The notes under the pieces are model-generated. The model worked only from the letters and a program-made list of their open reading frames with translations, searched no databases and was not told where the DNA came from. The position numbers and the translations under genes were made by a program. From NCBI GenBank assembly GCA_037443365.1, contig JBBIOM010000020.1, positions 1-34,934 of the forward strand: DNA of 34,934 nucleotides, read 5' to 3'. Positions 2,754-27,947 of this stretch are shown piece by piece (positions within the stretch are counted from its first letter, which is position 1; the number at the start of each line of letters is the position of its first letter). The DNA is from Armatimonadota bacterium (GTDB taxonomy: Bacteria; Sysuimicrobiota; Sysuimicrobiia; Sysuimicrobiales; Humicultoraceae).

Positions 2754-3790
2754 GCCACGCGCCAGGGCACCAGCACTATCTTCCCGAACTGCTCGCGGCG
2801 CTCCAGCATGCGGTGGGCCTCGGCGGCCTGCTCCAGCGGCATGACCGCGTGCACCACCGGGCGCACGCTGCCGGAAGAGACCAGGCGCATGACCTCGAGC
2901 ATCTCGCGCTTGGTGCCCACCCAGGTCCCGTGAATCGCCAGCTGCCGGCCGTAGATGTACCGGATGTCGGTGGTCCCTTCGGGCCCTGTCGTGGCTCCAC
3001 AGGTTGCGAGCCGGCCTCCGCGCGCCAGCGACCTGATGCTCGCTTCCCAGGTGGACTTGCCCACATGGTCAAACACCACGTCCACTCCACGTCGTCCGGT
3101 GAGACGGCGCACCTCCTCGTACACATCTTGCGACGAGTGGTTGACCACCTCATGGGCGCCCAATTCCCTGGCACGCTCCAGCTTCCAGTCCGCGCCCGCG
3201 GTGGCGATCACGCGTGCCCCCATCTGCCGTGCGATCTGCACGCCGGCGCTGCCCACGCCGCTGCCCGCACCCCAGATCAACACCGTCTCGCCCATGCTGA
3301 TGCGGGCGTTCGTCACCAGCATGTTCCACGCGGTCAGGAAGACCAGGGGCACGGCCGCGGCTTCCTCGAAGCTCAGGTGGGATGGCTTCGGCATCACGTT
3401 CACGCGAGGCACCACGACGAACTCGGCGTAGCCGCCCGGGATGTGCTCCCCCAGGATCGAGAACGCGTCGCACAGGTTGTCGCGGCCGCTCGCGCAGGCC
3501 GGGCACTGCCCGCACGAGACCCCGGGGGAAATCATCACCTCGTCGCCCACCGACACACCGGTCGCGCGATCCCCGAAGCCGGCCACCACGCCGGCCACAT
3601 CGGCGCCCAGGATGTGTGGAAACCGCAGCCGAAGCCTGGGCAGGCCGCGCCTCACCCACAGGTCAATGTGATTCAGCGCGGCCGCCCTTATCCTGACGAG
3701 GACGTCGGTCGGCCCTGGCGCCGGGTCCGGGACTTCCTGGTGGACCAGGGCCTCGGGGCCTCCGTGCTGGTGGATGCAGACGGCCTGCAT
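2750..3790 (-). CDS. Zinc-binding MDR-family alcohol dehydrogenase / quinone oxidoreductase-like protein
   Basis: AAALNHID, PHILGAD, structural Zn CGQCPAC..C, GAGSGVG nucleotide loop, GKIVL end. Confidence 0.85.
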   Translation of the reverse strand: MQAVCIHQHGGPEALVHQEVPDPAPGPTDVLVRIRAAALNHIDLWVRRGLPRLRLRFPHILGADVAGVVAGFGDRATGVSVGDEVMISPGVSCGQCPACASGRDNLCDAFSILGEHIPGGYAEFVVVPRVNVMPKPSHLSFEEAAAVPLVFLTAWNMLVTNARISMGETVLIWGAGSGVGSAGVQIARQMGARVIATAGADWKLERARELGAHEVVNHSSQDVYEEVRRLTGRRGVDVVFDHVGKSTWEASIRSLARGGRLATCGATTGPEGTTDIRYIYGRQLAIHGTWVGTKREMLEVMRLVSSGSVRPVVHAVMPLEQAAEAHRMLERREQFGKIVLVPWRVA

Positions 3791-3795
3791 CGGCC

Positions 3796-4704
3796 CTATT
3801 CCTCCAGCATCAGGCGCCGGATCTCGGCGGTGAGGCGCAGCGCCTCAGGCATCGGGCGCTGCCACATGTTGCGGCCGAAGATCAGCCCGGTGGCGCCGGC
3901 CTGCATCACGAGGCGCGCCTTCTCCAACAGGTCGGCGTCGCCGATCTTCCCGCCGCCGCTGAAGAGCACGAACGCCCGCCCGGCGCTGCGGACCACCTTC
4001 TCCACGGCCTCGCGGTACTCGAGGATCATCGCGTTGTAGGGCTTGGGCGAGCCCTCCCTGGCCTTCTGATCGAAGACGGGCACGTTGAGCTTGATGACGT
4101 CGGCGCCGAGTTCGGTCGCCACGCGCGCGGCGTAGTCCACGGCGTAGAGGCTGTCACGCCCACCCTTCTTCTCTATTGCTTCGCCCCTGGGATACGACCA
4201 GACGACCAACGGCATCCCGTAGCGGTCGCAATCGGCGCGCACCGACGCCAGCTGCGCGATGTCCTCGTCCTGCCGGGGCGAGCCCACGTAGAGGGTGTAG
4301 CCGACTGCGGCGGCATCGAGCCGGACCGCGTCCTCGACGCGCGCGGTCATCCCCGAGAAGGCCCTGTCCGACGGAGGGATGTTCGTGCTGCCGTTGATCT
4401 TGAGAATCAGCGGGATCCTGCCGGCGTACCCGGCCAGGTAGTGCGCCGCAATGCCGTAGTGGAAGGCTATCCCCGAGTAGCCGCCGTCTATGGCCAGGCG
4501 TATCTGGAAATCAGGATCCTCGCTGGGTGGGTTGGGAAGGAAATCCGCCGGCCCGTGCTCGAGCCCCTGATCCACGGGGAGAACAAGCATCGTTCCCTTA
4601 CCGGGGCCGTGCTGGTAGAGCAGGCGGTGCAGTCGCGCGCGCACGCCCTGAGCGAGCGGCAGCGAGTCGAGCTGCGGTCTTCTAGCACGCTCGTCCTTCA
4701 TCAC
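3796..4704 (-). CDS. Class I (DhnA/FbaB-type) fructose-bisphosphate aldolase
   Basis: LPVDQGLEHGP, AVGYTLYVGS, WSYPRG, Schiff-base ELGADVIK, SGG, GLIFGRN; SD GGGAGGT before the GTG/ATG. Confidence 0.9.
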   Translation of the reverse strand: MMKDERARRPQLDSLPLAQGVRARLHRLLYQHGPGKGTMLVLPVDQGLEHGPADFLPNPPSEDPDFQIRLAIDGGYSGIAFHYGIAAHYLAGYAGRIPLILKINGSTNIPPSDRAFSGMTARVEDAVRLDAAAVGYTLYVGSPRQDEDIAQLASVRADCDRYGMPLVVWSYPRGEAIEKKGGRDSLYAVDYAARVATELGADVIKLNVPVFDQKAREGSPKPYNAMILEYREAVEKVVRSAGRAFVLFSGGGKIGDADLLEKARLVMQAGATGLIFGRNMWQRPMPEALRLTAEIRRLMLEE

Positions 4705-4717
4705 GGTACCTCCCTAG

Positions 4718-4739
4718 CCCGGGCCGCGCTGGGCCCGGG
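4718..4739. other. Intergenic GC-rich hairpin between lptA-like gene and aldolase
   Basis: CCCGGGCC (4718-4725) / GGCCCGGG (4732-4739) perfect 8-bp inverted repeat; no clear U-tract. Confidence 0.4.
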
Positions 4740-4746
4740 TACGTAA

Positions 4747-5604
4747 TCACGGTGTTGCTTCGATCCTGGCCCTGATCTGGCCTTCCGCCACGAACCGTCC
4801 TGCGGCGTACCAGACCGTCAACTTCTCGGCCGACAGGTGGCGGCCTGCCTGCACCAGCCGCACATCGCCCTCGAAGACGGCGCGCTGCTCTCCGAGGAAG
4901 ACCTCTGCCCCCGCGCTGTGGATCTCCATATCGCGCAGGATCGCGTGCACCCCTCCGGAGGCCTTCACCCTCTTCCAGCGATCGAAGGCCTCGATCCGCT
5001 CGCACTGGACGAACCCATCCCGCGTCTGCACGCGGGCTCGGCCTTCCAGGACCGCCTCGCCGCGCGCGCGCCGGTAGACGAGGCGCGCGCCGGTGGCGAT
5101 GATGTCGGGGGGCGTGAAGATCACTACCTCGCCCTGCGCGCTGATCGTGTCCGCCTCAGGCACCACGCTCACCTGGACAGCGGTGACCAGCCCGCCTTCG
5201 ACGTCCATGCTGGCCTTGCCCCGCGCGACCACGTGCCTGATCGCCGCGGACGTGTAGAGCACCGTGATCTCGGCACCTTCCAGCACGCCCTGCGGGGCCA
5301 CCACCCTGGCCTGGCCGGTCAGTACCCCCCGCCCTTCGCCGTAGTAGAGAGTCGCCCGCTCGGCGGTCGCCGTCGTGACCCCGTCGGTGATGCGCACGCG
5401 GCCTGCCGCCGACACCACGCGGGCCGCGGCATCGGCCCGGAGCTCGTCCGCCGTGACCACAAGACGCGGCGAGGGGCGCGGCGCCGGCGTGGCCGAAGGC
5501 ACCGGGCCGGGCGCAGCGGTGGATGGGCCGGGCGAGCCCGCCGCCGCCAAGAGCCACATGGCCGCGGCGACAAGAATCAGGGGCATTGCGCGCGGGAGAG
5601 GCAT
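4747..5604 (-). CDS. LptA/OstA-family beta-jellyroll protein, exported
   Basis: Signal peptide, Pro-rich linker, repeated beta motifs (VTADEL, AAGRVRIT, VVARGKA, ASGGVH, FEGDVRLVQ, LSAEKL). Confidence 0.75.
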   Translation of the reverse strand: MPLPRAMPLILVAAAMWLLAAAGSPGPSTAAPGPVPSATPAPRPSPRLVVTADELRADAAARVVSAAGRVRITDGVTTATAERATLYYGEGRGVLTGQARVVAPQGVLEGAEITVLYTSAAIRHVVARGKASMDVEGGLVTAVQVSVVPEADTISAQGEVVIFTPPDIIATGARLVYRRARGEAVLEGRARVQTRDGFVQCERIEAFDRWKRVKASGGVHAILRDMEIHSAGAEVFLGEQRAVFEGDVRLVQAGRHLSAEKLTVWYAAGRFVAEGQIRARIEATP

Positions 5605-5614
5605 GGTGGTCGCG

Positions 5615-6283
5615 CTAGGGGTTCCTCGTAATGTACTCGTACAGCGTCCGGTCGCGATATGCCGCGGCCAGATGGGCGGCGGCCTTCTTCTTGTCGCCCT
5701 TGCGCGTGTAGGTCAATCCCAGCATGTAGTGGAGCACGGCGTTACGGGGGTTCACCGCGAGCCCCTTCTCCCAGGCGCCGATGGCGCGGTCGCTCTGACC
5801 CAGGTCGGCGTATGCCTGCCCCAGGTAACCGTAGCCCCAGTCGTTCTGAGGGTCGATCGCGACGATCCGCTCGAACCCGGCGGCCACGGCCGGACGCTCG
5901 CCCAGGAAGTAGCGCGCGAACGCCAGCCTGTACCGGGCCAGCAGATCGTTGCGGTTGCGCGCGATCAGCCCCTCGGCCTCGGCCACGATCCGCAGCGCCA
6001 GCGCCTGCCGTGCTGCGGGCGGGCCGATCGCCTGGTCGGCCTCCTGGAGCTGCCGGAATCCGTCCAGGAGCCGCCCGCTGCGAGCGTAGAGCATCGCCAG
6101 CGTGAAGCGCGCGCCGGGATCCGACGGGCTCGACGCGACCTGCTGCTCGTAGCGCCGGGTCAGGGCCGGCCAATCCGCGGCCACCCCCTGCGCAAGCGCG
6201 GCCCGGGGAGGCGGTACGAGCAGCAGCACCGCAAGCAGCACCGAGGTCGCAGCCAGCACCAGGACCCGCCGGCGGTCAGTCAC
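5615..6283 (-). CDS. Exported tetratricopeptide-repeat protein
   Basis: Likely start GTG at 6283 (VTDRRRVLVLAA.. signal peptide ending ALA-Q), not 6514; TPR motifs ARFTLAMLY, YGYLGQAYADLG, LHYMLGLTY. Confidence 0.8.
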   Translation of the reverse strand: MTDRRRVLVLAATSVLLAVLLLVPPPRAALAQGVAADWPALTRRYEQQVASSPSDPGARFTLAMLYARSGRLLDGFRQLQEADQAIGPPAARQALALRIVAEAEGLIARNRNDLLARYRLAFARYFLGERPAVAAGFERIVAIDPQNDWGYGYLGQAYADLGQSDRAIGAWEKGLAVNPRNAVLHYMLGLTYTRKGDKKKAAAHLAAAYRDRTLYEYITRNP

Positions 6284-6285
6284 GA

Positions 6286-6855
6286 TCAGGGCCTGCCTCT
6301 GGTGAAGCCATAATGGCCGAGGGGCTTCCCGAGGCTCCAGTACTCCCGCGCGCCCGGACAGTAGGCCAGTGGAAGGGCTCTCAGGATATCGATCCGGCCC
6401 CTTTCCCCCTGCACTTCCTCCTTCACATGGAGGGCAACGATCTCGCCGAGGAAGAGATCGTGGCTTCCGAGGGAGATGACCTGTTTGACTTTGCACTCCA
6501 TTTGAACCGGACATTCGTCGATCAATGGCGCCCTAACCTTCTCCGCTGGAACGACCTTCCATCCCGTCAGATCGAATTTATCCGTCTCTCTTCCTGAGAC
6601 CACCCCGCAGGCATCAACCCCTCTGACCATCTCCTCCGAGGGAAGATTGACAACAAATTCCCCCATCCCCTTTATGCAACCATGCGAATACCGTTCCGGC
6701 CTGATGGAAATGCCGATCATGGGAGGCTCGGAATTGACCACTCCTGCCCAGGCCAGCGTGATGATATTGGGTTTTCCCTCTTCATCCACACAGGTCACTA
6801 AGACAACCGGTGTTGGAAAGAGTAAGGTCGTAGGTGGAAGGCTCTTTCGCCCCAT
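6286..6855 (-). CDS. Flavin reductase-family (flavoredoxin-like) FMN-binding protein
   Basis: PTPVVLVT, NIITLAWAG, PPMIGISIRPERYSH, EFVVNLP, CGVVSGR..DKF, LIDECPVQMEC, GSHDLFLGEI; SD-like AGGAGAGAGG. Confidence 0.9.
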   Translation of the reverse strand: MGRKSLPPTTLLFPTPVVLVTCVDEEGKPNIITLAWAGVVNSEPPMIGISIRPERYSHGCIKGMGEFVVNLPSEEMVRGVDACGVVSGRETDKFDLTGWKVVPAEKVRAPLIDECPVQMECKVKQVISLGSHDLFLGEIVALHVKEEVQGERGRIDILRALPLAYCPGAREYWSLGKPLGHYGFTRGRP

Positions 6856-6884
6856 TCCTCTCCTCCTTCTGGGACCCTCACCTT

Positions 6885-8024
6885 CTACTGAACGCGAGTG
6901 GCCACCGGCAGCCGCGCCACAACCCTCCGGGCCACCTCACGCAGTACCTTCGAAGATGGACTGTCCGGATGGGTCCTGACGAGCGGCAGCCCGCTGTCGC
7001 CGCTCTCGCGCAGGGCCAGGTCAATGGGGATCTCCCCCAGAAGCGGCACACCCAGGATCTCGGCCAGGCGCCGCCCCCCGCCCCTTCCGAACAGGTCGAC
7101 GGTGGTGGCCCCGGGCCCCGGCGTGAATCCCGACATGTTCTCAACCACGCCGACGACTGGCATGTTCACCAGCTCCGCCATCTTCGCTGCGCGCCTGGCC
7201 ACGCTCACGGCCGCAGGCTGCGGGGTGGTGACGATCAGCATGCTGGCCCGCGGCAGCGTCTGCGCGATCGTCAGCGATACGTCCCCGGTCCCGGGCGGCA
7301 GGTCTATCAGCAGGTACTCCAGGTCATCACCCCAGTGCACGTCGGAGATGAACGAGACCAGGGCCCTGTGCAGGAGCGGCCCCCTCCAGACCACCGCGGC
7401 CGAGTCGTCGGGCAGGAGGAACCCAATGGACATGACGCGGACGCCGTCGCTCTCAAGCGGGATCACTAACTGCTCTATGACCGTTGGGCGTCCCTCAACA
7501 CCCAGCATGCGGGGGATGGAGAAGCCGTAGATGTCGGCGTCAATCACGCCCACGCGCCTGCCTTCCAGCGCCAGGGCCGCGGCCAGGTTCGCGGTGATGG
7601 TGGACTTGCCCACGCCGCCCTTGCCGCTCGATATCGCGATCACACGCGTGCGCGAGTCCTCCGCGAGCAGCCCCTGCCGCCGCATGGGAGGCTCCGGGCC
7701 GTCGGGCGAGGCAGCGGGTTCGCCGCCCTGCAGCCGCCTGACCAGCGCCTGGCGCTGCTCCTGGTCCATCACCCCGAGACGGACGCTCACATCGCTGACC
7801 CCGGGGACGGCTCGGATCCTCTCCGCGACCGCGCTGGCGATTGTCTCTCTCAGGGGACAGCCACTGATGGTCAGCTGCACGTCCACGCTTACCCGGCCTT
7901 CCTCTACGGTGATCTCGCGGACCATGTCCAACTCGACGATGCTCCGGTGAAGCTCTGGGTCTTGTACGTCGCGGAGAGCCTCCAGGATCTGCTCTCGCGT
8001 GGGCTTGCTCCTGCTACCTGACAT
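6885..8024 (-). CDS. mrp: Mrp/NBP35 (ApbC) Fe-S cluster carrier ATPase with N-terminal DUF59
   Basis: DPEL and TISGCPL (DUF59), SGKGGVGKS deviant Walker A, DADIYG, VVWRGP, DLPPGTGD, GVVENMS. Confidence 0.92.
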   Translation of the reverse strand: MSGSRSKPTREQILEALRDVQDPELHRSIVELDMVREITVEEGRVSVDVQLTISGCPLRETIASAVAERIRAVPGVSDVSVRLGVMDQEQRQALVRRLQGGEPAASPDGPEPPMRRQGLLAEDSRTRVIAISSGKGGVGKSTITANLAAALALEGRRVGVIDADIYGFSIPRMLGVEGRPTVIEQLVIPLESDGVRVMSIGFLLPDDSAAVVWRGPLLHRALVSFISDVHWGDDLEYLLIDLPPGTGDVSLTIAQTLPRASMLIVTTPQPAAVSVARRAAKMAELVNMPVVGVVENMSGFTPGPGATTVDLFGRGGGRRLAEILGVPLLGEIPIDLALRESGDSGLPLVRTHPDSPSSKVLREVARRVVARLPVATRVQ

Positions 8025-8035
8025 CGTGGTCCTCC

Positions 8036-8683
8036 CTAGTGGTCTTGCTTGCGGCGCCGACGGCGGCGACGGCGCTTCCCGCTGGCCTCTGCCGGCCGCG
8101 CCGCTGCCGGCGTGACCGGCGCCTCAGGCGGCTCCGCGGCCTCCTCCAAGCCGCCTTCTGTCTCCGGGGCGACCTCGCCGCTGACCTCTTCTTCACCAGG
8201 TGGCGCTCCGGTGACAGATGCCTGATGGCGCCTGGCCTGGGGGCGCGCCAGGTCTCTCTCCGCCAGAGACCTTGCCTTGACGAGCGTGCTCTCGATGTGA
8301 CCCGCGAGTATCTGGCGCACGGCTGCCTCCGAGAAGAGCGTGATGCCGGGATCCACCGCCACCTGCGCGGCGAGAACCGTCGCGCCGTCGGATTCCCCTA
8401 CCGTGTACGCTCCGGAGAACTCCAGAAGGGTTCCGCGTACCTGCTTGAACTCGATCCGGCCAGGCGATCTCAGCGAGAACCTCTGCACCGAGGTGATCGG
8501 CAGGCCTCCGAAGAACCCGCGGAACTCCACCAGGGGCGCGGTGGGCGACCGTTCCCTTACATCCGCGGCCATCCAGATACCGGTGAACCGGGGGTGTGAC
8601 TCGATCCGGCTGAGCAACTGCCAGACACGCTGCACCGGAGCCCGGATGGCCCGATACCCTTCGGCGCGGATCACTCCAGGCAC
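8036..8683 (-). CDS. SRPBCC/START-like (polyketide cyclase-type) domain protein with acidic then Arg-rich tail
   Basis: IRAPVQRVWQLL..IESHPRF, RIEFKQVRG..FSGAY pattern; ends KRRRRRRRRKQDH. Confidence 0.7.
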   Translation of the reverse strand: MPGVIRAEGYRAIRAPVQRVWQLLSRIESHPRFTGIWMAADVRERSPTAPLVEFRGFFGGLPITSVQRFSLRSPGRIEFKQVRGTLLEFSGAYTVGESDGATVLAAQVAVDPGITLFSEAAVRQILAGHIESTLVKARSLAERDLARPQARRHQASVTGAPPGEEEVSGEVAPETEGGLEEAAEPPEAPVTPAAARPAEASGKRRRRRRRRKQDH

Positions 8684-11401: not shown

Positions 11402-11665
11402 CTAGAAGGGAACCGCTTCCACCCCACGGATCTCCGGGATCTCCTGCTTCACCATCCGCTCGATACCCATCTTCAGTGTCATCATCGCGTGCATGCAACC
11501 CACGCAGGCGCCCGTCAAGCGGACGCGAACGACCCCGTCGGTCACGTCCACCAGCTGAACATCGCCGCCGTCGCCCTGAATGTAGGGGCGGATGGTGTCA
11601 AGCACCCGCTCGACCCTGCTCTGCAGGCTCGCTGCGGGCTGCTCCGTGCTCGTCTGATCTGTCAT
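11402..11665 (-). CDS. NifU C-terminal / Nfu-type Fe-S carrier protein
   Basis: IRPYIQGDGGDV and GACVGC (CxxC); ATG at 11665 with GGAGG SD preferred over 11683. Confidence 0.9.
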   Translation of the reverse strand: MTDQTSTEQPAASLQSRVERVLDTIRPYIQGDGGDVQLVDVTDGVVRVRLTGACVGCMHAMMTLKMGIERMVKQEIPEIRGVEAVPF

Positions 11666-11697
11666 GACTTCCTCCAGTGGCACTGTTGACGCGCCTA

Positions 11698-12138
11698 CTA
11701 CTCAATCATAGCCCTGCGAGGCCTGCCGCGCAAGGCGCGCGGCACGGGTCTGGGATGATCGCGCACGGCGTCCACCGCGCAGAGAAACCCGAACGCCTCC
11801 CTGCCTGCCAGGAACTGGTGGGGCGTCCCGGATGGAATCAGCATGAAGTCCAGCGGCCTCACCCTGTGCAGCCTGTCGCCGATTCGCACGCGACCCCGGC
11901 CGCGCAGCACCAGCACCGCGTGCGCGTGACGGTGCTGCTCGAGCGACGAGTAGCCACCGGGCGCGATCTCGAAGTAGCGCAGGTGAAACGCCGTCGGCTC
12001 CTCCCGCCCGCCCACCAGCACGAACCGCAGGACGTCATGCCAGGCCAGCGGACCGCGGGACGAGGCCTTGTAAGGAACAGATGGGAATCCCTTCCAGCGG
12101 AACCGCGCCGGGTCGAAACGCGCAATCACGGGCTTCAC
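11698..12138 (-). CDS. Cupin, resembling 1-methylthio-xylulose-5-phosphate methylsulfurylase family
   Basis: FRWKG..YK, LRYFEIAPGGYSSLEQHRHAH, PHQF, FGFLCAVD..RDHP; GTGA overlap with upstream gene. Confidence 0.75.
   Translation of the reverse strand: MKPVIARFDPARFRWKGFPSVPYKASSRGPLAWHDVLRFVLVGGREEPTAFHLRYFEIAPGGYSSLEQHRHAHAVLVLRGRGRVRIGDRLHRVRPLDFMLIPSGTPHQFLAGREAFGFLCAVDAVRDHPRPVPRALRGRPRRAMIE
11705..11733 (-). promoter_or_regulatory. Internal sigma70-type promoter for nfu, inside the cupin 3' end
   Basis: TTGCGC (11733-11728), 17 nt, TATGAT (11710-11705). Confidence 0.55.
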
Positions 12139-13175
12139 GGCCGCACCACCACCTTGAGCGCGGAGCCGGCTTCGCGCATGAGCGAGTAGCCCCGACCCAC
12201 CTCCGAGAGCGGAATCCGATGCGTCACCAGAGGCTCGACCTGCAGCCCCGCGGTGAGCATGCGCAGCGCCTCGCGCGTCTCATCCGGCCCCGCTGAGTAG
12301 GCCGTCGTGACCGTGACCTCCTTGAAGTACAGGTCGTGAGCCGGCAGCGGCCATCTCGCCTCGGGCGGCGTGGGGGCGAAGATCACGAGCGTCCCTCCGG
12401 GTGCCACGCTGCGCAGCCCTTCCTCCAAGGCCTCCACCGCGCCCGGGCCGACTATCACGACGTCCGCACCCGCGCCCCCGGTGGCCTCGCGTACGACTTC
12501 GTGCAGGGACTTGCGCGAGGTATCCACGGCTACATCGGCGTACCGCGCGGCCGTCGCCGCGCGGAGAGGATTGAGATCGGCGGCGACGAGCACCGCGGGG
12601 GCGGCCATCGCCCGAAGGGCCAAGAGGTGCAGCAGCCCCATGACACCCATCCCAATCACCAGCACGCGATCGCCGTCGCGGAGCCGCGCGCGGCGTATGG
12701 ACTTGACCACGCAGGCCAGCGGTTCCACGAATACGGCGGCCTCGTCGGACAGTTCCGCGGGCAGCCGCAGGGTGTCTACGGCGACGGCAGGGGCCTGCGC
12801 CAGGGCCAGGGTCGCCAGGCCGCCGGGTATCAGTCGTCGGGGCGCCCAGGCCGGGCAGTGCACGTGGTCCCCGCGGCGGCAGGCCCGGCAGGCCATGCAG
12901 GGAGCGTGGTGGTGGACGAAGACCCGCTCGCCCGGGCTGAAAGCCGCGCCTGGGCCGGCTTCGAGCACCACGCCCACCGGTTCGTGGCCCAGCGGTACCG
13001 GGGCCTTGCGGGCCAGGTACCAGTCCATGATCTCGCCGGTGCACAGCCCGCATGCACTGATGCGCAGCAGCAGCTCGCCGGGGCCAGGAGGCGGAACCTC
13101 GACCTCCTCCAGCCGCAGATCTCCTGGGCCGTGGCATATCGCGGCCAGCGCCACATTCGGACGCGCCGCGGTCAT
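12135..13175 (-). CDS. Zn-dependent polyol (sorbitol/iditol-like) dehydrogenase, MDR family
   Basis: CGLCTGE, GHEPVG, HHHAPCMACRAC..C, EPLACV, GMGVMG; ATGA overlap with upstream paralog. Confidence 0.85.
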   Translation of the reverse strand: MTAARPNVALAAICHGPGDLRLEEVEVPPPGPGELLLRISACGLCTGEIMDWYLARKAPVPLGHEPVGVVLEAGPGAAFSPGERVFVHHHAPCMACRACRRGDHVHCPAWAPRRLIPGGLATLALAQAPAVAVDTLRLPAELSDEAAVFVEPLACVVKSIRRARLRDGDRVLVIGMGVMGLLHLLALRAMAAPAVLVAADLNPLRAATAARYADVAVDTSRKSLHEVVREATGGAGADVVIVGPGAVEALEEGLRSVAPGGTLVIFAPTPPEARWPLPAHDLYFKEVTVTTAYSAGPDETREALRMLTAGLQVEPLVTHRIPLSEVGRGYSLMREAGSALKVVVRP

Positions 13176-14200
13176 GCCTCGTCCCCGGGCATCACCGCGT
13201 ACTTGGTCCCGATCCTGCGGTCCAGGTCCTTGAACACCTCGGCTATGGCCGCGAGCGGCCGGGCCGCGGTGATCATGTCATAGGGCCTCACCGCGCCTGT
13301 GGCCAGGAGGTCGAGCGCAGAGCGGACGTCCTCGGTGCGGTAGTGAAAGGTGCTGACGAGGTCCACCTCGCCGTAGTGGATGCGCGTGGCGTCGAACTCC
13401 GCACGGCTCTTGCTCGGAAGCCCTCCGAACAGGAGGACGCGGCCTCCTGGGGCGGACCAGGCGGGCGCCGCGCTCCAGACCTCGGGAGAGCCCGTGCACT
13501 CGATGATCAGGTCAGGACCTCCGCCGGTGGCGGCGCGCAGTGCCTGGCCGACGTCTCCGGTGGAGGAATCCAGCGTGCGGGCGGCCCCTGCCCTCTCGGC
13601 CAGTTCCAGCCCTGCGGGACGACGTCCGACCGCGACCACCTCGTGCCCCCGGCGCCGCGCCTCGTGGATCTGCAGGAGGCCTATCGATCCCAGGCCGACC
13701 ACGGCCACACGCGCGCCGGGCGCGGGATCCAGCCGGTCCCAGGCATGCACGACGCAGGCCAGGGGCTCGAGGAACGCGGCCTCGATGTAGGAAAGACCCG
13801 GGGGCTTGGGAAACACGTGCCGGCGCACGACGCGCGCCGGCAGGCGGAGGAAGTCACCGTATGCGCCGAGCGCGATCTCATCGAAGAGGGTGGCGCACAG
13901 GTTCTCGCGGCCGCGCTGGCACGGCGTGCACCCCCCGCACCCGGCCGTGTGCACGAACGCCACGGGCTGACCCACCGAGATCCCGGAGACGCCCTCACCC
14001 ACAGCGGCGATATCCCCGGCCGCCTCGTGTCCAAATGGGCCGAAGGCCACCTTGGGGTGCCCGCGGCGGTAGGTCTTGAGATCGGTCCCGCAGGTGAGCG
14101 CGGCCCGAACGCGCACGACCACCTCGCCGGGGCCGGGCGATGGTACGGGCGCCTCCACCAGGTCGAGCTCGCGGGGAGCGCGCAGGATCGCCTGTCGCAT
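13172..14200 (-). CDS. Zn-dependent polyol (sorbitol/iditol-like) dehydrogenase, MDR family
   Basis: ALTCGTDLK, GHEAAG, CGGCTPC..C, EPLACV, GLGSIG. Confidence 0.85.
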   Translation of the reverse strand: MRQAILRAPRELDLVEAPVPSPGPGEVVVRVRAALTCGTDLKTYRRGHPKVAFGPFGHEAAGDIAAVGEGVSGISVGQPVAFVHTAGCGGCTPCQRGRENLCATLFDEIALGAYGDFLRLPARVVRRHVFPKPPGLSYIEAAFLEPLACVVHAWDRLDPAPGARVAVVGLGSIGLLQIHEARRRGHEVVAVGRRPAGLELAERAGAARTLDSSTGDVGQALRAATGGGPDLIIECTGSPEVWSAAPAWSAPGGRVLLFGGLPSKSRAEFDATRIHYGEVDLVSTFHYRTEDVRSALDLLATGAVRPYDMITAARPLAAIAEVFKDLDRRIGTKYAVMPGDEA

Positions 14201-14221: not shown

Positions 14222-15397
14222 CTATCCGGCCGCGGGGCCGGATTCGGTTGGCAGGGCCAGATTCGTCCACGCGATGATCCCGCCCGCCAGGTTGTAGGCC
14301 TGCGTGTAGCCTGCCTTGCGCAACGCTTCCACCACGCCAGCACTCCGGCTTCCAGAGGAGCACTGCACGATCACGGGCCGGTCGGGGTCGATCTCGGACG
14401 CGCGCCTTGGCACCTCGGATACGGGCATGAGCCTGGCGCCCGGTATGCGCAGCGCAGCCCATTCCCATGGCTCGCGCACGTCCACCAACTGGGCTCCCTG
14501 CGCAAGCATCGCGCTGGCCTCGTGTGGATCCACCTCGGCGCCTGGCGCGGAGACGATCGCATGCGCGGGCTCCCGGGGCCGGCCCGGCAGGCCGCAGAAC
14601 TGCTCGTAATCTATCAACGCGGTGATCGTCGGGCTATCTCCACAGACCGGGCACTGCCGGTTCCGGTTCCAGCGGACGGTGCGCGTCTCCCCGGAAAGGG
14701 CGTCCACGAGGAGCAGGCGGTTGGCCAGGCCTTCGCCGGCGCGAAGCAGCAGCTTCACCGCCTCGATGGCCTGGATGGTGCCCAACTGTCCTGCCACTGC
14801 GCCGATGACGCCGGCCTCGGCGCAGGAGGGCACCGCGCCCGGAGGAGGCGGGGACGGAAACAGGCAGCGGTAGCAGCCGCGTCCGGGCAGGTAGACCGTG
14901 GCCTGGCCCTCCCACCGCAGGACGCTGGCGTCAACCAGCGGCCGACGGAGCAGCACGCAAGCGTCGTTCACCAGGTAGCGCGTGGGGAAGTTGTCGCTGC
15001 AGTTGACCACCACATCGAACTGCCCGATGATCTCGAGGGCGTTGGACGAAGACAGCACAACCGGGAACATCAGCACGGCGACGTCCGGGTTGATCTCCCC
15101 GAGGGTGCGCGCGGCGGACTCGGTCTTGGGAGTACCGACATCGCGAGCCCGGTGCAGGATCTGCCTGTGGAGGTTGGACAGTTCCACGCGGTCGCCGTCC
15201 ACGATCCCGATGGTGCCGACCCCGGCCGCTGCCAGGTAGAGGGCCGCGGGCGAGCCCAGTCCGCCCGCGCCCACCACAAGCACCCTGGAATCGAGCAGGC
15301 GGCGCTGGCCTGCGACGCCCATCTCCTGGAGGACCAGCTGCCGCGAGTAGCGGTCAAGCTGCTCTCTACTGAGGAAGGGCGCGGCGCCGGGGGTCAT
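14222..15397 (-). CDS. moeB: MoeB/ThiF adenylyltransferase with C-terminal rhodanese domain (MoeZ/MoeBR type)
   Basis: RYSRQ, GAGGLG, SNLHRQ, DNFPTRY, CYRC and CPVC Zn motifs, DVRE..E and rhodanese loop CSSGSRS; ATGA overlap with lipA stop gives start 15397. Confidence 0.92.
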   Translation of the reverse strand: MTPGAAPFLSREQLDRYSRQLVLQEMGVAGQRRLLDSRVLVVGAGGLGSPAALYLAAAGVGTIGIVDGDRVELSNLHRQILHRARDVGTPKTESAARTLGEINPDVAVLMFPVVLSSSNALEIIGQFDVVVNCSDNFPTRYLVNDACVLLRRPLVDASVLRWEGQATVYLPGRGCYRCLFPSPPPPGAVPSCAEAGVIGAVAGQLGTIQAIEAVKLLLRAGEGLANRLLLVDALSGETRTVRWNRNRQCPVCGDSPTITALIDYEQFCGLPGRPREPAHAIVSAPGAEVDPHEASAMLAQGAQLVDVREPWEWAALRIPGARLMPVSEVPRRASEIDPDRPVIVQCSSGSRSAGVVEALRKAGYTQAYNLAGGIIAWTNLALPTESGPAAG

Positions 15398-16311
15398 CCT
15401 GCCCACCGCGCTGCTTGCGCCTGCGCCTCAGCCCTGTAGGATGAGCGCACGAGCGGCCCTGCCTCAACGTACCTGAATCCGCGCCGCAGGCCCTCCTCGC
15501 GCAGGGCGGCGAACTCCTCTGGGGTGTAGTAGCGAGCGACCGGAAGATAGCCGGGGCCTGGCCGCAGGTACTGACCCAGGGTCAGCACATCGCAGTCCGC
15601 CGCCCGGAGGTCGTCCATGGCTTCCAGCAGGTCTTCCTCGCTCTCTCCCATCCCAAGAATGACACCACTCTTGGTAAGTGAACTGTACCCCCATTCCTTG
15701 CACCGCGCCAGCAGTTCGATGGATCGGGCGTAGTCGCCGCCCGGGCGCACGCTCCCGAACACCCTGCGGGCCGCCTCCAGGTTGTGCCCCATGATCTCCG
15801 GGCCGGCATCCAGGACCGTGCGCAGCGCTGCGGGATCGCCCTGGAAGTCGGGAACGAGCACCTCCAGGGTGCAGCCGGGAAGCCTCCGGCGAATGGCGCG
15901 AACCGTCTCGGCGTAGATACCGGAGCCGCCGTCTGGCAGATCGTCACGCGTCACCGAGGTCACGACCGCGTGGCGCAGACCCATGGCAGCGGCCGCGTCG
16001 GCGACGCGCGCCGGCTCACTCGGATCAGGGGTGCCCGGCCTCCCGCCTGCCACCGCGCAGTACCCGCAGCGGCGCGTGCAGGCCTCGCCGAGGATCAGGA
16101 ACGTGGCGGTGCGGCGGCCCCAGCACTCGCCGATGTTGGGGCAGCGGGCCTCCTCACAGACGGTGTGTATCCCGCCGCGGCGCATGATGCGGACCAGGTC
16201 GGCGTAGTTATCGCCCCCTGGCAGGCGAACCCGAAGCCAGGCGGGCCGCCGGCCATCACCGGGGCCTGGGCCGTCCGGCTCAGGCGTGCAGGGCTCTTCC
16301 CAGCGCGTCAA
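15394..16311 (-). CDS. lipA: Lipoyl synthase
   Basis: CEEARCPNIGEC, radical-SAM CTRRCGYC, TSVTRDDL, GQYL, VRSSY; TTG start with GGGAGG SD. Confidence 0.96.
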   Translation of the reverse strand: MTRWEEPCTPEPDGPGPGDGRRPAWLRVRLPGGDNYADLVRIMRRGGIHTVCEEARCPNIGECWGRRTATFLILGEACTRRCGYCAVAGGRPGTPDPSEPARVADAAAAMGLRHAVVTSVTRDDLPDGGSGIYAETVRAIRRRLPGCTLEVLVPDFQGDPAALRTVLDAGPEIMGHNLEAARRVFGSVRPGGDYARSIELLARCKEWGYSSLTKSGVILGMGESEEDLLEAMDDLRAADCDVLTLGQYLRPGPGYLPVARYYTPEEFAALREEGLRRGFRYVEAGPLVRSSYRAEAQAQAARWAG

Positions 16312-21254: not shown

Positions 21255-21280
21255 AACGCCGGGGGCCCATGGCTTGTTCC
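21255..21280 (-). promoter_or_regulatory. ECF sigma-type promoter for yceI
   Basis: GGAAC (21280-21276), 17 nt, CGTT (21258-21255), matching GGAAY-N18-GTT. Confidence 0.55.
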
Positions 21281-21363
21281 CGCCGGCTCGGCAGGGTAAC
21301 ATCGCTTCCTGGCCGAACCTACAGACATCGTTCATCTGTCGCGCATCCTGCGCGCGGGAGCCA

Positions 21364-22203
21364 ATGATGAATCGCGAAGCAGATCTGGGCGCGCTGCGAC
21401 TGCGCGCGCACGCCTTCCGAAAGACGATCCTGGAGATGATCACCCGGGCCGGCTCCGGGCACCCCGGCGGATCACTCTCGGTGATCGATCTCCTGACCGC
21501 GCTGTACTTCCGCCACCTGCGGCACGACCCGGGGAACCCGGCGTGGCCCGACCGCGACAGGGTCGTCCTCAGCAAGGGGCATGCCTGCCCTGCCTGGTAC
21601 GTGGTTCTGGCCGAGTGCGGCTACTTCGATCCCTCCCACCTGTGGACGCTGCGCCAGTTGGGAAGCCTCCTGCAGGGACATCCTGACATGACCCGGACGC
21701 CGGGGGTAGAGATCTCCACGGGCTCGCTGGGCATGGGGCTGTCGGCCGCCTCCGGCATGGCGCTTGCCGGAAAGCGCGACGGACGTCCCTACCGCGTTTT
21801 CGCGGTGCTCGGCGACGGCGAGTGCCAGGAGGGGTCTGTCTGGGAGGCGGCGATGTTCGCCGCCCACTACGGACTGGACAACCTGACGGCCATCGTGGAC
21901 CGCAACGGGCTACAGCAGACGGGGCGCACCGAGGAGCGCCTGCGCCTCGATCCCCTCGCCGACAAGTGGCGGGCCTTCAACTGGGAAGTCCAGGAGATTG
22001 ATGGGCACGACATGGGAGCGATCGTGTGCGCGCTTGAGGCGGCGGCCACCCTCGCCGGGCGGCCGCACGCGATCGTGGCCCGCACCGTCAAGGGCAAGGG
22101 GGTCTCTTTCGCCGAAGGCGTGGCAGGATACCACGGCAAGGCGTTGACGCAGGACGAGCTGGCGCGGGCGCTCGCCGAACTGGACAGCGCAGCGCGGGGG
22201 TAG
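21364..22203 (+). CDS. Transketolase, N-terminal ThDP-binding subunit (split type)
   Basis: GHPGGSLS, LSKGH, LQGHP, TGSLG, GDGE..EG..N ThDP motif, TVKGKG; start ATG 21364 or 21367. Confidence 0.92.
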   Translation: MMNREADLGALRLRAHAFRKTILEMITRAGSGHPGGSLSVIDLLTALYFRHLRHDPGNPAWPDRDRVVLSKGHACPAWYVVLAECGYFDPSHLWTLRQLGSLLQGHPDMTRTPGVEISTGSLGMGLSAASGMALAGKRDGRPYRVFAVLGDGECQEGSVWEAAMFAAHYGLDNLTAIVDRNGLQQTGRTEERLRLDPLADKWRAFNWEVQEIDGHDMGAIVCALEAAATLAGRPHAIVARTVKGKGVSFAEGVAGYHGKALTQDELARALAELDSAARG

Positions 22204-22209
22204 CGTGAG

Positions 22210-23178
22210 ATGGCGAGCGCTCCGAGACCGAACGCGGCACTGAAGGCCACGAGGGACGCCTACGGAGAGGCCATCGTGGAGGTGGCCCGGGACAACCCGC
22301 GCATTGTGGCGCTCACAGGGGACCTGCGCGACTCCAACCGGCTGGAGGCGTTCGCACAGGAGTACCCGGATCGCTTCTTCGAGTGCGGCATCGCCGAGCA
22401 GAACATGATCGGCGTGGCGGCAGGCCTGGCCGCCTGCGGTAAGATCCCCTTCGCGAGTTCGTTCGCCGCGTTCTCACCGGGCAGGTGCTACGACCAGATC
22501 AGGGTGCTGGTCGCGCAGCCCGGCCTCAACGTGAAGCTCGTCAGCACTCACGGCGGCCTGACCGTGGGCGAGGACGGAATGAGCGCGCAGGCAGTGGAAG
22601 AGCTCGCGATGATGCGCGCGCTCGCCAACATGACCGTGATCGTCCCGGCCGACGCGGTGGAGACAGCGCAGGCAATCCACGCGGCGGCCGAGCACAACGG
22701 CCCGGTGTACGTGCGGCTCGGCCGGTCGGGCGTGCCCGTTCTGTTCGATGAGTCCTACCGGTTCTCGATCGGGGCGGCCCCCCTACTGCGTGACGGAGGC
22801 GACGTGACGCTGGCGGCCTGCGGAATCATGGTGGCCGAGGCGCTGGAAGCCGCGCGCCTGCTGGAAGTGGAGGGCATCCGGGCCCGTGTGCTCAACGTCT
22901 CGACGCTCAAGCCCCTCGACGAGGAGTCGCTCCTTCGGGCCGCGCGCGAGACCGGCGCAATCGTCACCGCGGAGGAGCACACGGTCCACGGAGGGCTGGG
23001 AGGGGCCGTCTGCGAGGTGGTCGCGGCAGGTCACCCGGTGGCCGTCGAGCGTGTGGGGATATGGGACAGGTTCGGCGAGTCCGGACCGCCAGGGCCGCTG
23101 ATGCAGGCCTACGGCCTCACCGCGGAGGAGATCGCCGCGGCCGCGCGGCGTGCGCTGAGACGCAAGCGGACCTCCTAG
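22210..23178 (+). CDS. Transketolase, C-terminal subunit (split type)
   Basis: TRDAYG, GIAEQNM, YDQIR, GEDGMSAQ, GPVYVRL, EEH..GGLG. Confidence 0.92.
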   Translation: MASAPRPNAALKATRDAYGEAIVEVARDNPRIVALTGDLRDSNRLEAFAQEYPDRFFECGIAEQNMIGVAAGLAACGKIPFASSFAAFSPGRCYDQIRVLVAQPGLNVKLVSTHGGLTVGEDGMSAQAVEELAMMRALANMTVIVPADAVETAQAIHAAAEHNGPVYVRLGRSGVPVLFDESYRFSIGAAPLLRDGGDVTLAACGIMVAEALEAARLLEVEGIRARVLNVSTLKPLDEESLLRAARETGAIVTAEEHTVHGGLGGAVCEVVAAGHPVAVERVGIWDRFGESGPPGPLMQAYGLTAEEIAAAARRALRRKRTS

Positions 23179-23600
23179 CGGGCCGCGTGCTCGTCAAGGC
23201 CCTGCTCAAGCGAGACCCACGGCAGCGTCGCGCACTTGACCCGCACCGGGAACCGCCGGACACCCTGCAGCGCGGCCAGATCGCCCATCTCCTCCCCGGA
23301 TCCCTCGCCGCGCATCAAGTCCTTGAACTTCCCGACCGCGGCGCGCACCTCGTCCAGCGTCCGGCCCTTGATGGCCTCGGTCATCATCGAGGCCGAGGCC
23401 TGGCTGATCGCACACCCGCGCCCTTCGAAGCGCACGTCCGCGACCCGGCCGTCCCTCAGGTTCAGGTACAGCGTGAGCTCGTCCCCGCAGAGCGGGTTGG
23501 CGCCTTCCACGGATATGTCGCTGGGCTCCAGCCTGCCGCGGTTGCGGGGATGGGCGTGGTGGTCGAGGATCACCTCGCGGTACAGATCATCCAGTTCCAT
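23175..23600 (-). CDS. sufU: SufU sulfur-transfer protein
   Basis: LYREVILDH, NPLCGD, GCAISQAS, RVKCA. Confidence 0.95.
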   Translation of the reverse strand: MELDDLYREVILDHHAHPRNRGRLEPSDISVEGANPLCGDELTLYLNLRDGRVADVRFEGRGCAISQASASMMTEAIKGRTLDEVRAAVGKFKDLMRGEGSGEEMGDLAALQGVRRFPVRVKCATLPWVSLEQGLDEHAAR

Positions 23601-24852
23601 GCGCGACCTCCTTCGTGCTCAAGGAGGCCCGCGCAAACAGGCGGTGCACCTTGATCAGTCCGGCGACCAGGGCGTCCACATCCGACCTCAGGCTGTACAG
23701 GTGGAAGCTGGCGCGAGCCGAGGCCGGTATCCCGAACCGGCGGTGCAGCGGCTCGGCGCAGTGGTGCCCGGCGCGTACGGCGATGCCCTCGCCGTCGAGA
23801 ACCTGGGCGATGTCGTGAGGGTGGACGCCCTCCAGCGTGAACGCGATCGCGCCGCCCCGATCCGCGGCCGTCTTGGGCCCGTAGATCACGAGCCCGGGAA
23901 CCTCGCTTAGCCGCCCCAGCGCGTAGTCAATCAGGTCGCGCTCATGCGCGCTGATAGCGTCCATGCCGGTCTTCCGCATGTAGTCGACCGCTGCGCCAAG
24001 GCCGATCGCGCCCGCCACGTTGGGAGTCCCGGCTTCGAACCTGTGGGGCGGGGCCTTGTAGGTGGACCGGTCGAGTCCGACGCTCATGATCATCTCGCCC
24101 CCACCATGGTAGGGCGGCATCGCCTCGAGCAGGGAGTAGCGGGCCCACAGCCCGCCTATGCCCATCGGGCCCAGCATCTTGTGGCCCGAGAACGCCAGGA
24201 AGTCGGCGCCCAGCGCGCCCACGTCCACGCTCTGGTGTGGGACGCTCTGGGCCGCGTCAACGAGAACCAGCGCGCCCGCCTGGTGCGCCCGATCCGCGAT
24301 GCGCCTGATCGGGTTGATCGTGCCAAGCACGTTGGACTGGTGCGTCAGTCCGACCAACTTCGGCCGGTCCTCCAGCAGACGCTCGAATGCATCGAGATCG
24401 AGCCGGCCCTCGTCCGTGACGGGGACGTACCTCAAGACGGCGCCACGCTCGGCGGCCAGCATCTGCCAGGGCACGATGTTGCTGTGATGCTCCATCTCGG
24501 TCAGGAGGATCTCGTCACCGGCCCCGATGTTGGCGCGGCCCCATGCCGCGGCCACAAGGTTGATGGCCTCCGTGGTGCCCCGGGTGAATACGATCTCCTC
24601 GCTCCCTGCTGCGCCCAGAAATGAGGCCAGATTTGCCCGTGCCTCCTCGTACCTGGCGGTGGCCTCCTCGGCCAGCCAGTAGATGCCGCGGTGGACGTTG
24701 GCGTTGTAGGAGCGATAGTACTCCGATATCGCGTCCAACACTTGCTGCGGCTTCTGCGAAGTCGCCGCGCTGTCGAGGTAGATCAGGGTCTTCCCGTCCG
24801 CCTTCGGGCGCAGGAGGGGAAAATCGTCACGCGTGCCTGCGGCCAGAGCCAC
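23587..24852 (-). CDS. sufS: SufS cysteine desulfurase
   Basis: YLDSAATSQKP, EHHSN, FSGHKM (PLP Lys), RAGHHCA. Confidence 0.96.
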   Translation of the reverse strand: MALAAGTRDDFPLLRPKADGKTLIYLDSAATSQKPQQVLDAISEYYRSYNANVHRGIYWLAEEATARYEEARANLASFLGAAGSEEIVFTRGTTEAINLVAAAWGRANIGAGDEILLTEMEHHSNIVPWQMLAAERGAVLRYVPVTDEGRLDLDAFERLLEDRPKLVGLTHQSNVLGTINPIRRIADRAHQAGALVLVDAAQSVPHQSVDVGALGADFLAFSGHKMLGPMGIGGLWARYSLLEAMPPYHGGGEMIMSVGLDRSTYKAPPHRFEAGTPNVAGAIGLGAAVDYMRKTGMDAISAHERDLIDYALGRLSEVPGLVIYGPKTAADRGGAIAFTLEGVHPHDIAQVLDGEGIAVRAGHHCAEPLHRRFGIPASARASFHLYSLRSDVDALVAGLIKVHRLFARASLSTKEVAHGTG

Positions 24853-24868
24853 TGGCGCACCTCCGATG

Positions 24869-25213
24869 CTAGCGCTTGTGCGGCATTCCCTGACCGGGTC
24901 TGCCTTCCAGCGAGATCAGGATCGCGTCGCCTTCCACCTTCACGGGGTACGTGGCCACCGGCCTGACGGCAGGCAGCGAAAGCACACGCCCCGAGGGCAG
25001 GTGGAACCGCGATCCGTGCCTGGGACACACCAGGATCTCGCCCATCAAGGGACCTTCCGCGAGGGACTGGTCCTCGTGGGTGCAGTTGTCATCCACCGCG
25101 TAGATCGCGCCGCCCACGTTCGCCACCGCGATCTTGCGCCCGGCGGCCTCCACGCGCTTCGCGCTGCCAGGCGGGATCTCATGGAGTGTCGCAACCCGGA
25201 TGAACTCGTCCAT
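24869..25213 (-). CDS. Rieske-type [2Fe-2S] ferredoxin
   Basis: CTHE and CPRHGS.F Rieske boxes. Confidence 0.92.
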   Translation of the reverse strand: MDEFIRVATLHEIPPGSAKRVEAAGRKIAVANVGGAIYAVDDNCTHEDQSLAEGPLMGEILVCPRHGSRFHLPSGRVLSLPAVRPVATYPVKVEGDAILISLEGRPGQGMPHKR

Positions 25214-25214
25214 T

Positions 25215-27930: not shown

Positions 27931-27947
27931 CGGGCCCTCCCCGGAAC

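Follow-up and report, generated by a model that had tools for sequence, protein, structure and literature searches.

Introduction

The shunt connecting 5'-methylthioadenosine (MTA) to isoprenoid biosynthesis is known from two purple bacteria and is defined by a RuBisCO-like isomerase. In this pathway, a RuBisCO-like protein (RLP) moves the carbonyl of methylthioribulose-1-phosphate to give methylthioxylulose-5-phosphate, which a cupin converts into DXP (1-deoxy-D-xylulose 5-phosphate) and methanethiol. To our knowledge, the only known version of a route from MTA to DXP uses an RLP. Here, we analyze a stretch of 34,934 nucleotides (contig JBBIOM010000020.1, hereafter the window) from a bacterium of the phylum Ca. 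Sysuimicrobiota (CSP1-3), in which two genes encoding zinc-dependent dehydrogenases, designated adhA and adhB, overlap one another and a cupin gene. On balance, we slightly favor the view that these three genes form one metabolic unit, predicted to complete an RLP-independent MTA-isoprenoid shunt through a redox isomerization. In the best reading of the locus, the feature that would be new relative to the known shunt is the dehydrogenase pair standing in place of the RLP isomerase.

A methylsulfurylase-family cupin joined to two dehydrogenase genes

A reading of this DNA made from the letters alone (the sequence-only reading) had described two divergent zinc dehydrogenases and a cupin joined by ATGA and GTGA overlaps, and the reading frames, gene junctions, Pfam domains and protein identity all agree with it. 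As read in the DNA, the adhA stop codon overlaps the adhB start as ATGA and the adhB stop codon overlaps the GTG start of the cupin as GTGA. Both long proteins carry the ADH_N and ADH_zinc_N domains, while Cupin_2 matches the short one with an E-value of 1.7e-11 over residues 55-110 of 146, a single barrel within the size range of about 140-170 residues typical of Rru_A2000-type cupins. With 31% identity between adhA and adhB, "divergent" is a fair description of the pair.

The cupin belongs in the methylsulfurylase family, its activity being predicted, because of its match to Rru_A2000, its invariant motifs, the existence of RLP-cupin fusions and an interspersed tree. The likeness to Rru_A2000 noted in the sequence-only reading was borne out, since the best solved match is PDB 3jzv, deposited as "uncharacterized protein Rru_A2000" (E 2e-26, 96 bits; cupin residues 11-131 against residues 17-134 of chain 3jzv_A), followed by the structural-genomics entries 3kgz (E 4.1e-24) and 3ibm (E 1.1e-22); the next match, outside the family, stands at 5.8e-5. 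Rru_A2000 has been named as the methylthioxylulose-5-phosphate (MTXu-5P) methylsulfurylase of Rhodospirillum rubrum, with DXP and a glutathione-methylthiol adduct as products and glutathione as the thiol co-substrate in this organism (PMC4334135). The motifs quoted earlier are present in the translation (LRYFEIAPGGYSSLEQHRHAHAV, PHQF and FGFLCAVDAVRDHP), and the alignment to Rru_A2000 that had been suggested as a check shows RYFE..PGG.S.LE.H.H.H, HQF and GFLC..RD.P, cysteine included, to be identical in 3jzv, 3kgz and 3ibm. Across 25 diverse homologues, residues H69, H71, H73, H107 and C120 are invariant, and so are the motifs RYFE..PGG.SS.E.H.H.H, HQF and FGF.C.VD..RD.P; we take the motif cysteine (C120) to be the catalytic residue.

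Among 18 long relatives of the cupin, 17 (512-582 aa, 42-50% identical to the window cupin) are RLP-cupin fusions and none is a fusion of a dehydrogenase with a cupin. In a tree of 82 cupin sequences, whose deep forks are poorly supported, the cupins fused or adjacent to an RLP (L027, L042, L054, L076) nest among the dehydrogenase-linked ones, and the distance of the window cupin from Rru_A2000 and the RLP-fused cupins is about that between dehydrogenase-linked cupins of different phyla. Both results place the cupin inside the methylsulfurylase family, the opposite outcome having been named in the sequence-only reading as one that would speak against its proposal. The fusions occur mostly in Planctomycetota (L042, 6597-8501, a 635-aa open frame; L054; L076; proteins P0121 and P0123-P0138) and constitute a Rosetta-stone link between two known shunt enzymes.

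MTA salvage and isoprenoid genes in the host genome

The genome from which the window derives (G000; 97.71% complete, 69 contigs) encodes MtnA, as had been anticipated (430 bits against a cut-off of 279), together with MtnP (298 against 275 and 368 against 306 in two models), and four spermidine-synthase-family matches are sources of MTA. The prediction that the genome would hold neither an RLP nor an MtnB route also held: no match to PF00016 (RuBisCO/RLP) and no acireductone dioxygenase (ARD) were found in it, and no MtnB reached the cut-off, the sole class II aldolase-like gene, itself a weak match (48 bits), scoring 40.9 against 137. Since PF00016, ARD and an MtnB over cut-off are all missing, 5-methylthio-D-ribulose-1-phosphate (MTRu-1P) is made in this organism yet has no other recognized consumer.

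On the isoprenoid side, the genome contains Dxr (421 bits against a cut-off of 316) and IspH (285 bits), and neither HMG-CoA reductase nor the DXP synthase Dxs was found in it. A split transketolase located in the window gives the best match to Dxs (209.6 bits against 466); we considered it as a hidden Dxs and rejected it, its halves scoring 345 and 328 bits against the transketolase model and 47 and 195 bits against the Dxs model. DXP is hence consumed in this genome yet has no recognized source.

Conserved linkage across genomes and metagenomes

We surveyed the best 80 loci of 583 cupin relatives, with one genome per species (79 genomes), calling dehydrogenase genes at a threshold of 150 bits and counting them as nearby within 4.5 kb. 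The order adhA>adhB>cupin on one strand was found in 20 of the 80 loci and adhB>cupin in 21, adhB lying directly upstream of the cupin in 41 overall; with 10 loci in which dehydrogenase genes are nearby in another arrangement, any form of linkage amounts to 51/80. The other 29 loci are dehydrogenase-free, several of them on contigs of only 1.6-3 kb and one (L085) holding an adhB fragment below the 150-bit threshold. The adhA-adhB-cupin arrangement is far beyond chance. Dehydrogenase-linked cupins occur in at least nine named phyla, the labels of the metagenome-assembled genomes being Sysuimicrobiota/Armatimonadota, Binatota, Nitrospirota, Planctomycetota, Acidobacteriota, Bacillota, Chloroflexota, Actinomycetota and Eremiobacterota, and all-against-all clustering of the flanking reading frames revealed no other gene family as widely common across lineages, save antisense shadows of the dehydrogenase genes. 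Genomes with a lone cupin often keep adhA and adhB adjacent elsewhere (G009, G033, G046, G047, G055), and Binatia with the adhB>cupin order carry an adhA-like gene at a separate site (258-273 bits).

In the window, the trio is part of a long co-directional array on the minus strand (lpd, lipA, moeZ, adhA, adhB, cupin, nifU, rtcB), surrounded in this phylum by unrelated housekeeping genes, and no terminator-like site was found on this strand between about 10100 and 17100, which is weak evidence. One could hence regard the adjacency as an accident of the array, devoid of functional meaning, a view that we hold to be extremely improbable: it is contradicted by the linkage of dehydrogenases and cupin in 51 of 80 loci and at least nine phyla, while all other neighbors change.

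The dehydrogenase genes are also associated with MTA salvage. In Candidatus Solirubrobacter pratensis (L074), mtnA (11369-10461), adhB (10464-9481) and adhA (9472-8450) follow one another on the minus strand, mtnA and adhB overlapping by 4 bases, and this operon converges on the cupin gene at 8001-8435. The same mtnA-adhB-adhA operon lies 3 kb from the cupin in Solirubrobacter phytolaccae (L084), and in L059 mtnA is convergent on the cupin. In a survey of 80 metagenome loci with adhB as bait, five (L148, L159, L161, L162 and L169) have mtnA as the gene immediately upstream of adhB, and a sixth (L153) has it no more than 3 kb away. MtnA was moreover present in all five genomes tested among dehydrogenase-cupin carriers from five other lineages.

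The two dehydrogenases and the proposed route

By their domains and by their catalytic and structural zinc sites, both proteins fit the polyol dehydrogenase branch of the zinc-dependent medium-chain dehydrogenases. The catalytic zinc ligands (C37, H58, E59 and E145 in adhA; C42, H64, E65 and E151 in adhB) and the structural zinc cysteines (C88, C91, C94 and C102 in adhA; C93, C96, C99 and C107 in adhB) are conserved in at least 90% of 26 adhA and 50 adhB orthologues. Among solved structures, both come closest to sorbitol, threonine and ketose dehydrogenases and reductases, the best matches for adhB being the sorbitol dehydrogenases 1pl6 (E 4.6e-38) and 3qe3 (E 5.3e-37). Neither protein reached the cut-off of any NCBIfam model (best scores 122.9 against 376 for adhA and 131.9 against 500 for adhB), and neither is a member of a named dehydrogenase equivalog such as Tdh, IolM, GatD or idonate dehydrogenase.

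The two families differ in their cofactor signatures. At the end of strand beta-2, adhB has D200; 44 of the 50 orthologues carry Asp and the other 6 Glu at this position, an NAD-type signature in all of them. Positions 192-194 of adhA read G-R-R, and Gly or Ala followed by Arg, an NADP-type signature, is found in 20/26 orthologues; two others are without an acid. By the established rules for medium-chain dehydrogenases, these signatures point to an NADPH-dependent reduction paired with an NAD+-dependent oxidation, a pairing that would give an isomerization its direction.

In the route that we propose, MtnP and MtnA, encoded elsewhere in the genome, would convert MTA into MTRu-1P. The NADPH-type adhA would then reduce the C2 ketone to a 5-methylthio-pentitol-1-phosphate, for which stereochemistry would require the D-arabinitol configuration, and the NAD-type, sorbitol-dehydrogenase-like adhB would oxidize the C4 hydroxyl beside the CH2-SCH3 end to yield MTXu-5P, these two steps being conceivable in either order. 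Finally, the cupin would remove the methylthio group using a thiol, giving DXP and a methylthio adduct. Written out in Fischer projections, reduction at C2 and oxidation at C4 of MTRu-1P would, after renumbering, produce 1-methylthio-xylulose-5-phosphate; the retained C3 hydroxyl would already have the D-xylulose configuration, and a D-arabinitol-type intermediate would provide the right C4. We infer the substrates, the polyol intermediate and the net isomerization from comparative evidence; what was observed comprises the anatomy of the genes, their families, the content of the genome, the recurrent linkage and the signatures for cofactors. Enzymes of the sorbitol dehydrogenase class oxidize a hydroxyl next to a terminal CH2X to form a 2-ketose. 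A reaction of this kind on a phosphorylated pentitol has been described, arabitol-phosphate dehydrogenase interconverting arabitol-1-phosphate and xylulose-5-phosphate (PMC6685057). Our literature search, which most subscription journals lay beyond, returned no description of a dehydrogenase-based replacement of the RLP.

Relation to RLPs and weighing of the alternatives

A PF00016 match was found in 15 of the 79 cupin genomes and none in the other 64. Four of these matches are high-scoring (three at 445-452 bits; a partial one in G042 at 257 bits) and read as bona fide RuBisCO. In five genomes (G022, G036, G048, G070, G071), the RLP is of the low-scoring kind that is found fused to the cupin or next to it, and none of the five has adhA or adhB at E<=1e-45. 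Six more (G006, G013, G021, G023, G024, G033), all close to the phylum of the window, combine an RLP-type match of 137-158 bits with the dehydrogenase pair. Form IV RLPs have been described in two families of Sysuimicrobiota (PMC11604079). The mutual exclusion of dehydrogenases and RLP foreseen in the sequence-only reading hence holds cleanly where the RLP is of the type linked physically to the cupin, and does not extend to RLPs generally.

These six genomes weigh against the shunt assignment, and so do several other observations. Linkage to mtnA was found in only 3/80 genome loci and 6/80 metagenome loci, and counts as one or two independent observations because all of these loci may belong to one actinobacterial lineage. 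We considered MtnA as a marker of the module and rejected it: the protein does not track the module, since it is also present in the cupin-less relatives G141, G145 and G134. No mtnP gene was found beside the module in the 80 genome and 80 metagenome loci; the anticipated co-occurrence with MTA salvage genes was thus seen as mtnA-adhB(-adhA) operons and not for mtnP. Of the adhB-baited loci from metagenomes, 25 are flanked by 3 kb or more of sequence in either direction; a cupin occurs within 3 kb in only 11 of them, and 8 have neither adhA, cupin nor mtnA. As no curated NCBIfam cut-off was reached, the substrate of either dehydrogenase cannot be read from family membership. Lastly, four of the 26 adhA orthologues (L040 and L073 from Nitrospirota; L021 and L043 from Thermoflexus) carry Asp, which is NAD-type, so that the cofactor split is not universal. 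As it stands, the idea that the dehydrogenases replace the RLP draws on the cupin family, the presence of MtnA and MtnP, the absence of RLP, ARD and MtnB, and the mtnA-adhB-adhA operons, and is tempered by an RLP exclusion that is not strict and by an mtnP that is never adjacent.

The dehydrogenase genes that occur apart from a cupin might point to a broader function. The pair might be a general redox isomerase turning ketose-1-phosphates into ketose-5-phosphates, with 5-deoxy-D-ribulose-1-phosphate, derived from 5'-deoxyadenosine, as main substrate; DXP would then be formed directly without the cupin, which would serve only the MTA branch. 5'-Deoxyadenosine is a by-product of radical S-adenosylmethionine (SAM) enzymes, and radical SAM genes are near the module in some lineages (lipA in the window, a radical SAM gene in Binatia loci). 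On paper, DXP would result if the 5-deoxy analogue underwent the two redox steps proposed for MTRu-1P. Adjacent adhA and adhB genes away from any cupin, as in the five lone-cupin genomes mentioned above, and the presence of adhA with no cupin within 3 kb in 17/80 metagenome loci fit this idea as well. It is less easily reconciled with the near-constant company of high-scoring adhB and cupin within the phylum, which is unexpected if the cupin is dispensable, and our literature search, with the same limit on journals, returned no proposal of a 5-deoxyribulose route to DXP. The present evidence does not distinguish 5-deoxyribulose-1-phosphate from MTRu-1P as the substrate, and this function, unlikely as the principal one in our judgment, would extend the redox shunt more than oppose it.

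Neighboring transketolase and transaldolase genes may indicate a link to pentose-phosphate metabolism. Next to cupin-adhB, L116 and L133 carry a full-length transketolase gene of the NF004559 type (998-1001 bits), and a split or partial transketolase of this type comes after mtnA-adhB-adhA or adhB-adhA in L148 (158.6 + 183.4 bits) and L128 (61.3 bits), these four being the transketolase-linked loci among the 80 from metagenomes. In Binatia loci, a fusion of transaldolase and phosphoglucose isomerase (PGI) directly follows the cupin (a cluster in 13 loci), and the window itself has a split transketolase of the same type 7 kb away. Taken with the resemblance of both dehydrogenases to sorbitol and threonine dehydrogenases, these genes would suit a module for pentitol-phosphate or pentose-phosphate catabolism, which would supply the pentose phosphate pathway with sugars of the xylulose-5-phosphate type and in which the cupin would have some function other than that of a methylsulfurylase. 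We judge this quite unlikely, given that the cupin is about as near to Rru_A2000 and the RLP-fused cupins as dehydrogenase-linked cupins of different phyla are to each other, that the family-invariant cysteine of the GFLC motif is kept, and that mtnA, rather than a sugar kinase or transporter, shares operons with the dehydrogenases; no phosphotransferase system (PTS), kinase or permease family recurs near the module across lineages.

It could also be that the cupin makes DXP from MTXu-5P supplied by an unrecognized isomerase, the dehydrogenases being peripheral and serving to reduce reactive carbonyl side products or to convert the 1-methylthio-ribulose-5-phosphate epimer. Dehydrogenases of this sort are common accessory genes, and six cupin genomes (G014, G040, G052, G056, G060, G075) had neither an RLP nor adhA or adhB in our searches. 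The RLP of R. rubrum yields MTXu-5P and the ribulose epimer in a 3:1 ratio, and the fate of the epimer is left open there (PMC5893883). Such a scheme appears very unlikely to us, as it needs an extra enzyme and leaves unexplained why two distinct dehydrogenase subfamilies occur as a pair and in mtnA operons, as well as why they are absent where the RLP is fused to the cupin.

Missing Dxs and the supply of DXP

If the trio does operate as a redox shunt, its distribution bears on the supply of DXP for the 2-C-methyl-D-erythritol 4-phosphate (MEP) pathway. Dxs exceeded its cut-off in 4/39 and 24/40 cupin genomes and Dxr in 35/39 and 38/40; half-length Dxs matches were strong in G049, G060 and G073, and an ambiguous 125-bit end fragment in G056 was counted as absent. 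Dxr without Dxs was found in 43 of the 79 cupin genomes, 35 of these 43 being dehydrogenase-linked. The 51 genomes with a dehydrogenase-linked cupin comprise these 35, 13 with both enzymes, three with neither and none with only a Dxs fragment, against 8, 15, two and three, respectively, of the 28 with a non-linked cupin, an enrichment that is not readable as a statistic because the genomes are clustered by kinship. Dxs-less genomes with dehydrogenase and cupin genes belong to several unrelated phyla and include complete Binatia chromosomes; one Binatia genome (G011) also holds an HMG-CoA reductase.

Within Ca. Sysuimicrobiota, 73 genomes at least 85% complete, including the unpublished G092 and G097, contained Dxs in 2 cases, Dxr in 71, the cupin in 49 and an adhB-like gene (E<=1e-40) in 57. 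The MEP pathway thus appears to run without DXP synthase across the phylum. We rejected the module as a firm, full explanation of the missing Dxs: at least 14 genomes of the phylum keep Dxr and are without Dxs, cupin and adhB, so that another source of DXP must exist in it. In the 100% complete G141, for instance, IspH and MtnA are present and no HMG-CoA reductase, Dxs, cupin or adhB was found. Instead of being the only supply of DXP, the module may serve for salvage. That it is the main, and in some lineages the sole, source of DXP in MEP bacteria without DXP synthase is possible though rather doubtful; such bacteria would include a large part of Ca. Sysuimicrobiota and of Ca. Binatota as well as scattered Acidobacteriota, Bacillota, Chloroflexota and Eremiobacterota. 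If so, SAM-derived MTA, with 5'-deoxyadenosine perhaps as well, would be the stoichiometric feed for isoprenoids, and for thiamin where it is DXP-dependent, in place of pyruvate and glyceraldehyde-3-phosphate.

In a survey of 4,400 species, 181 were reported to have all MEP genes except Dxs, and 172 of these were counted as unexplained; among the 181, four had the methylsulfurylase only and five the methylsulfurylase with an RLP (PMC10663253). The cupin-only species of that survey might already include some of the lineages described here. A related observation comes from the cultured isolate Alkalibaculum sporogenes M08 DMB (L058), in which the cupin and Dxr are present and neither Dxs, an RLP, nor adhA or adhB at E<=1e-45 was found; this strain may offer experimental access to the function of the cupin in a further setting.

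Genomic surroundings of the module

The features of the window discussed here are listed in Table 1. The moeZ-like gene lies immediately upstream of adhA in 11/80 genome loci and in the metagenome loci L094 and L095, and nifU is syntenic with the cupin in 12/80 genome loci; speculatively, the moeZ-like protein could be a thiol or persulfide partner of the cupin. The window is rich in iron-sulfur and sulfur-handling genes, with nifU, lipA and moeZ accompanied by a SUF iron-sulfur assembly cluster whose SufS, SufD, SufB and SufC score near or above their cut-offs.

Table 1. Features of the window, with positions counted from its first nucleotide.
Feature	Position	Strand	Description
adhA	13172..14200	-	342 aa, ATG start; zinc-dependent medium-chain dehydrogenase, predicted NADP(H)-type; proposed ketoreductase
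adhB	12135..13175	-	346 aa, ATG start; zinc-dependent medium-chain dehydrogenase, sorbitol-dehydrogenase-like, predicted NAD-type; proposed secondary-alcohol oxidation
cupin	11698..12138	-	146 aa, GTG start; Cupin_2; Rru_A2000-type family
moeZ-like adenylyltransferase/sulfurtransferase	14222..15406	-	ThiF 1.1e-81, Rhodanese 1.1e-19; 21 bases upstream of adhA
NifU-like Fe-S scaffold domain protein	11402..11683	-	NifU 1.9e-28; 14 bases downstream of cupin
split transketolase, NF004559 type	21274-22203 and 22210-23178	+	345 and 328 bits; 7 kb from module
SUF iron-sulfur assembly cluster	23587-28832	-	SufS, SufD, SufB, SufC

A second copy of the cupin gene exists in G108 (L173, G108:C21, 7271-7699; cluster span 3539-8220), next to genes for a PALP enzyme, a tandem rhodanese, a ferritin-like reading frame that weakly matches a VlmB homologue (E 5.8e-4), and a Prok-JAB protein. 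These surroundings form a cluster in the style of sulfur-carrier-protein systems, and an RLP was looked for beside this copy and not found. Instead of glutathione, the cupin might use a protein persulfide or thiocarboxylate as its thiol partner. Among the adhB-baited metagenome loci, the weakest adhB-like matches (30-38% identity; L158, L166, L167, L170, L171, L172) adjoin an aldolase of the DeoC/LacD family and not a cupin; they probably represent a paralogous dehydrogenase of a different sugar-phosphate pathway.

Significance and comparison with known systems

Were the proposed function correct, the MTA-isoprenoid shunt would be far wider than RLP-based surveys show, with linked genes in at least nine phyla, and the presence of an RLP would no longer be a usable marker of the pathway. 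It would also be a clean case in which a reductase/dehydrogenase pair has taken over, non-orthologously, from a single isomerase, and three small soluble proteins would suffice to test it. For the question of the Dxs-less species (PMC10663253), the module offers a concrete candidate route and genes.

The closest described system is the shunt of R. rubrum and Rhodopseudomonas palustris, composed of MtnP, MtnA, an RLP of the DeepYkr type and the cupin Rru_A2000/RPA2170. MtnP, MtnA, a homologous cupin and Dxr are also present here, and the predicted net chemistry is alike, from MTRu-1P through MTXu-5P to DXP and a methylthio adduct. In contrast to these bacteria, the genome studied here is without an RLP, and two medium-chain dehydrogenases occupy its place in the cluster; the isomerization would proceed in two NAD(P)-dependent redox steps through a polyol phosphate, whereas the RLP shunt relies on a 1,3-proton transfer.

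Precedents for such a redox detour are found in sugar metabolism. The fungal xylose reductase and xylitol dehydrogenase, an NADPH-preferring reductase and an NAD+-preferring zinc dehydrogenase, isomerize a sugar through its polyol and replace one isomerase. They differ from the pair described here in acting on free, unphosphorylated pentoses, and their reductase belongs to the aldo-keto reductases and not to the medium-chain dehydrogenases. D-Arabitol-phosphate dehydrogenase (APDH of Enterococcus avium, AtlD of Bacillus methanolicus) catalyzes, on the unsubstituted compound, the counterpart of the step that adhB is proposed to perform, a likeness of reaction (PMC6685057); unlike the proposed function of adhB, APDH serves arabitol catabolism after uptake by the PTS. 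Finally, the dihydroxyacetone phosphate (DHAP) shunt, which comprises MtnP, MtnA and the aldolase Ald2 and disposes of MTA and 5'-deoxyadenosine (PMC5893883), has its first two steps in common with the route proposed here. It diverges by cleaving MTRu-1P into DHAP and 2-(methylthio)acetaldehyde, whereas the genome studied here has only a weak class II aldolase-like match.

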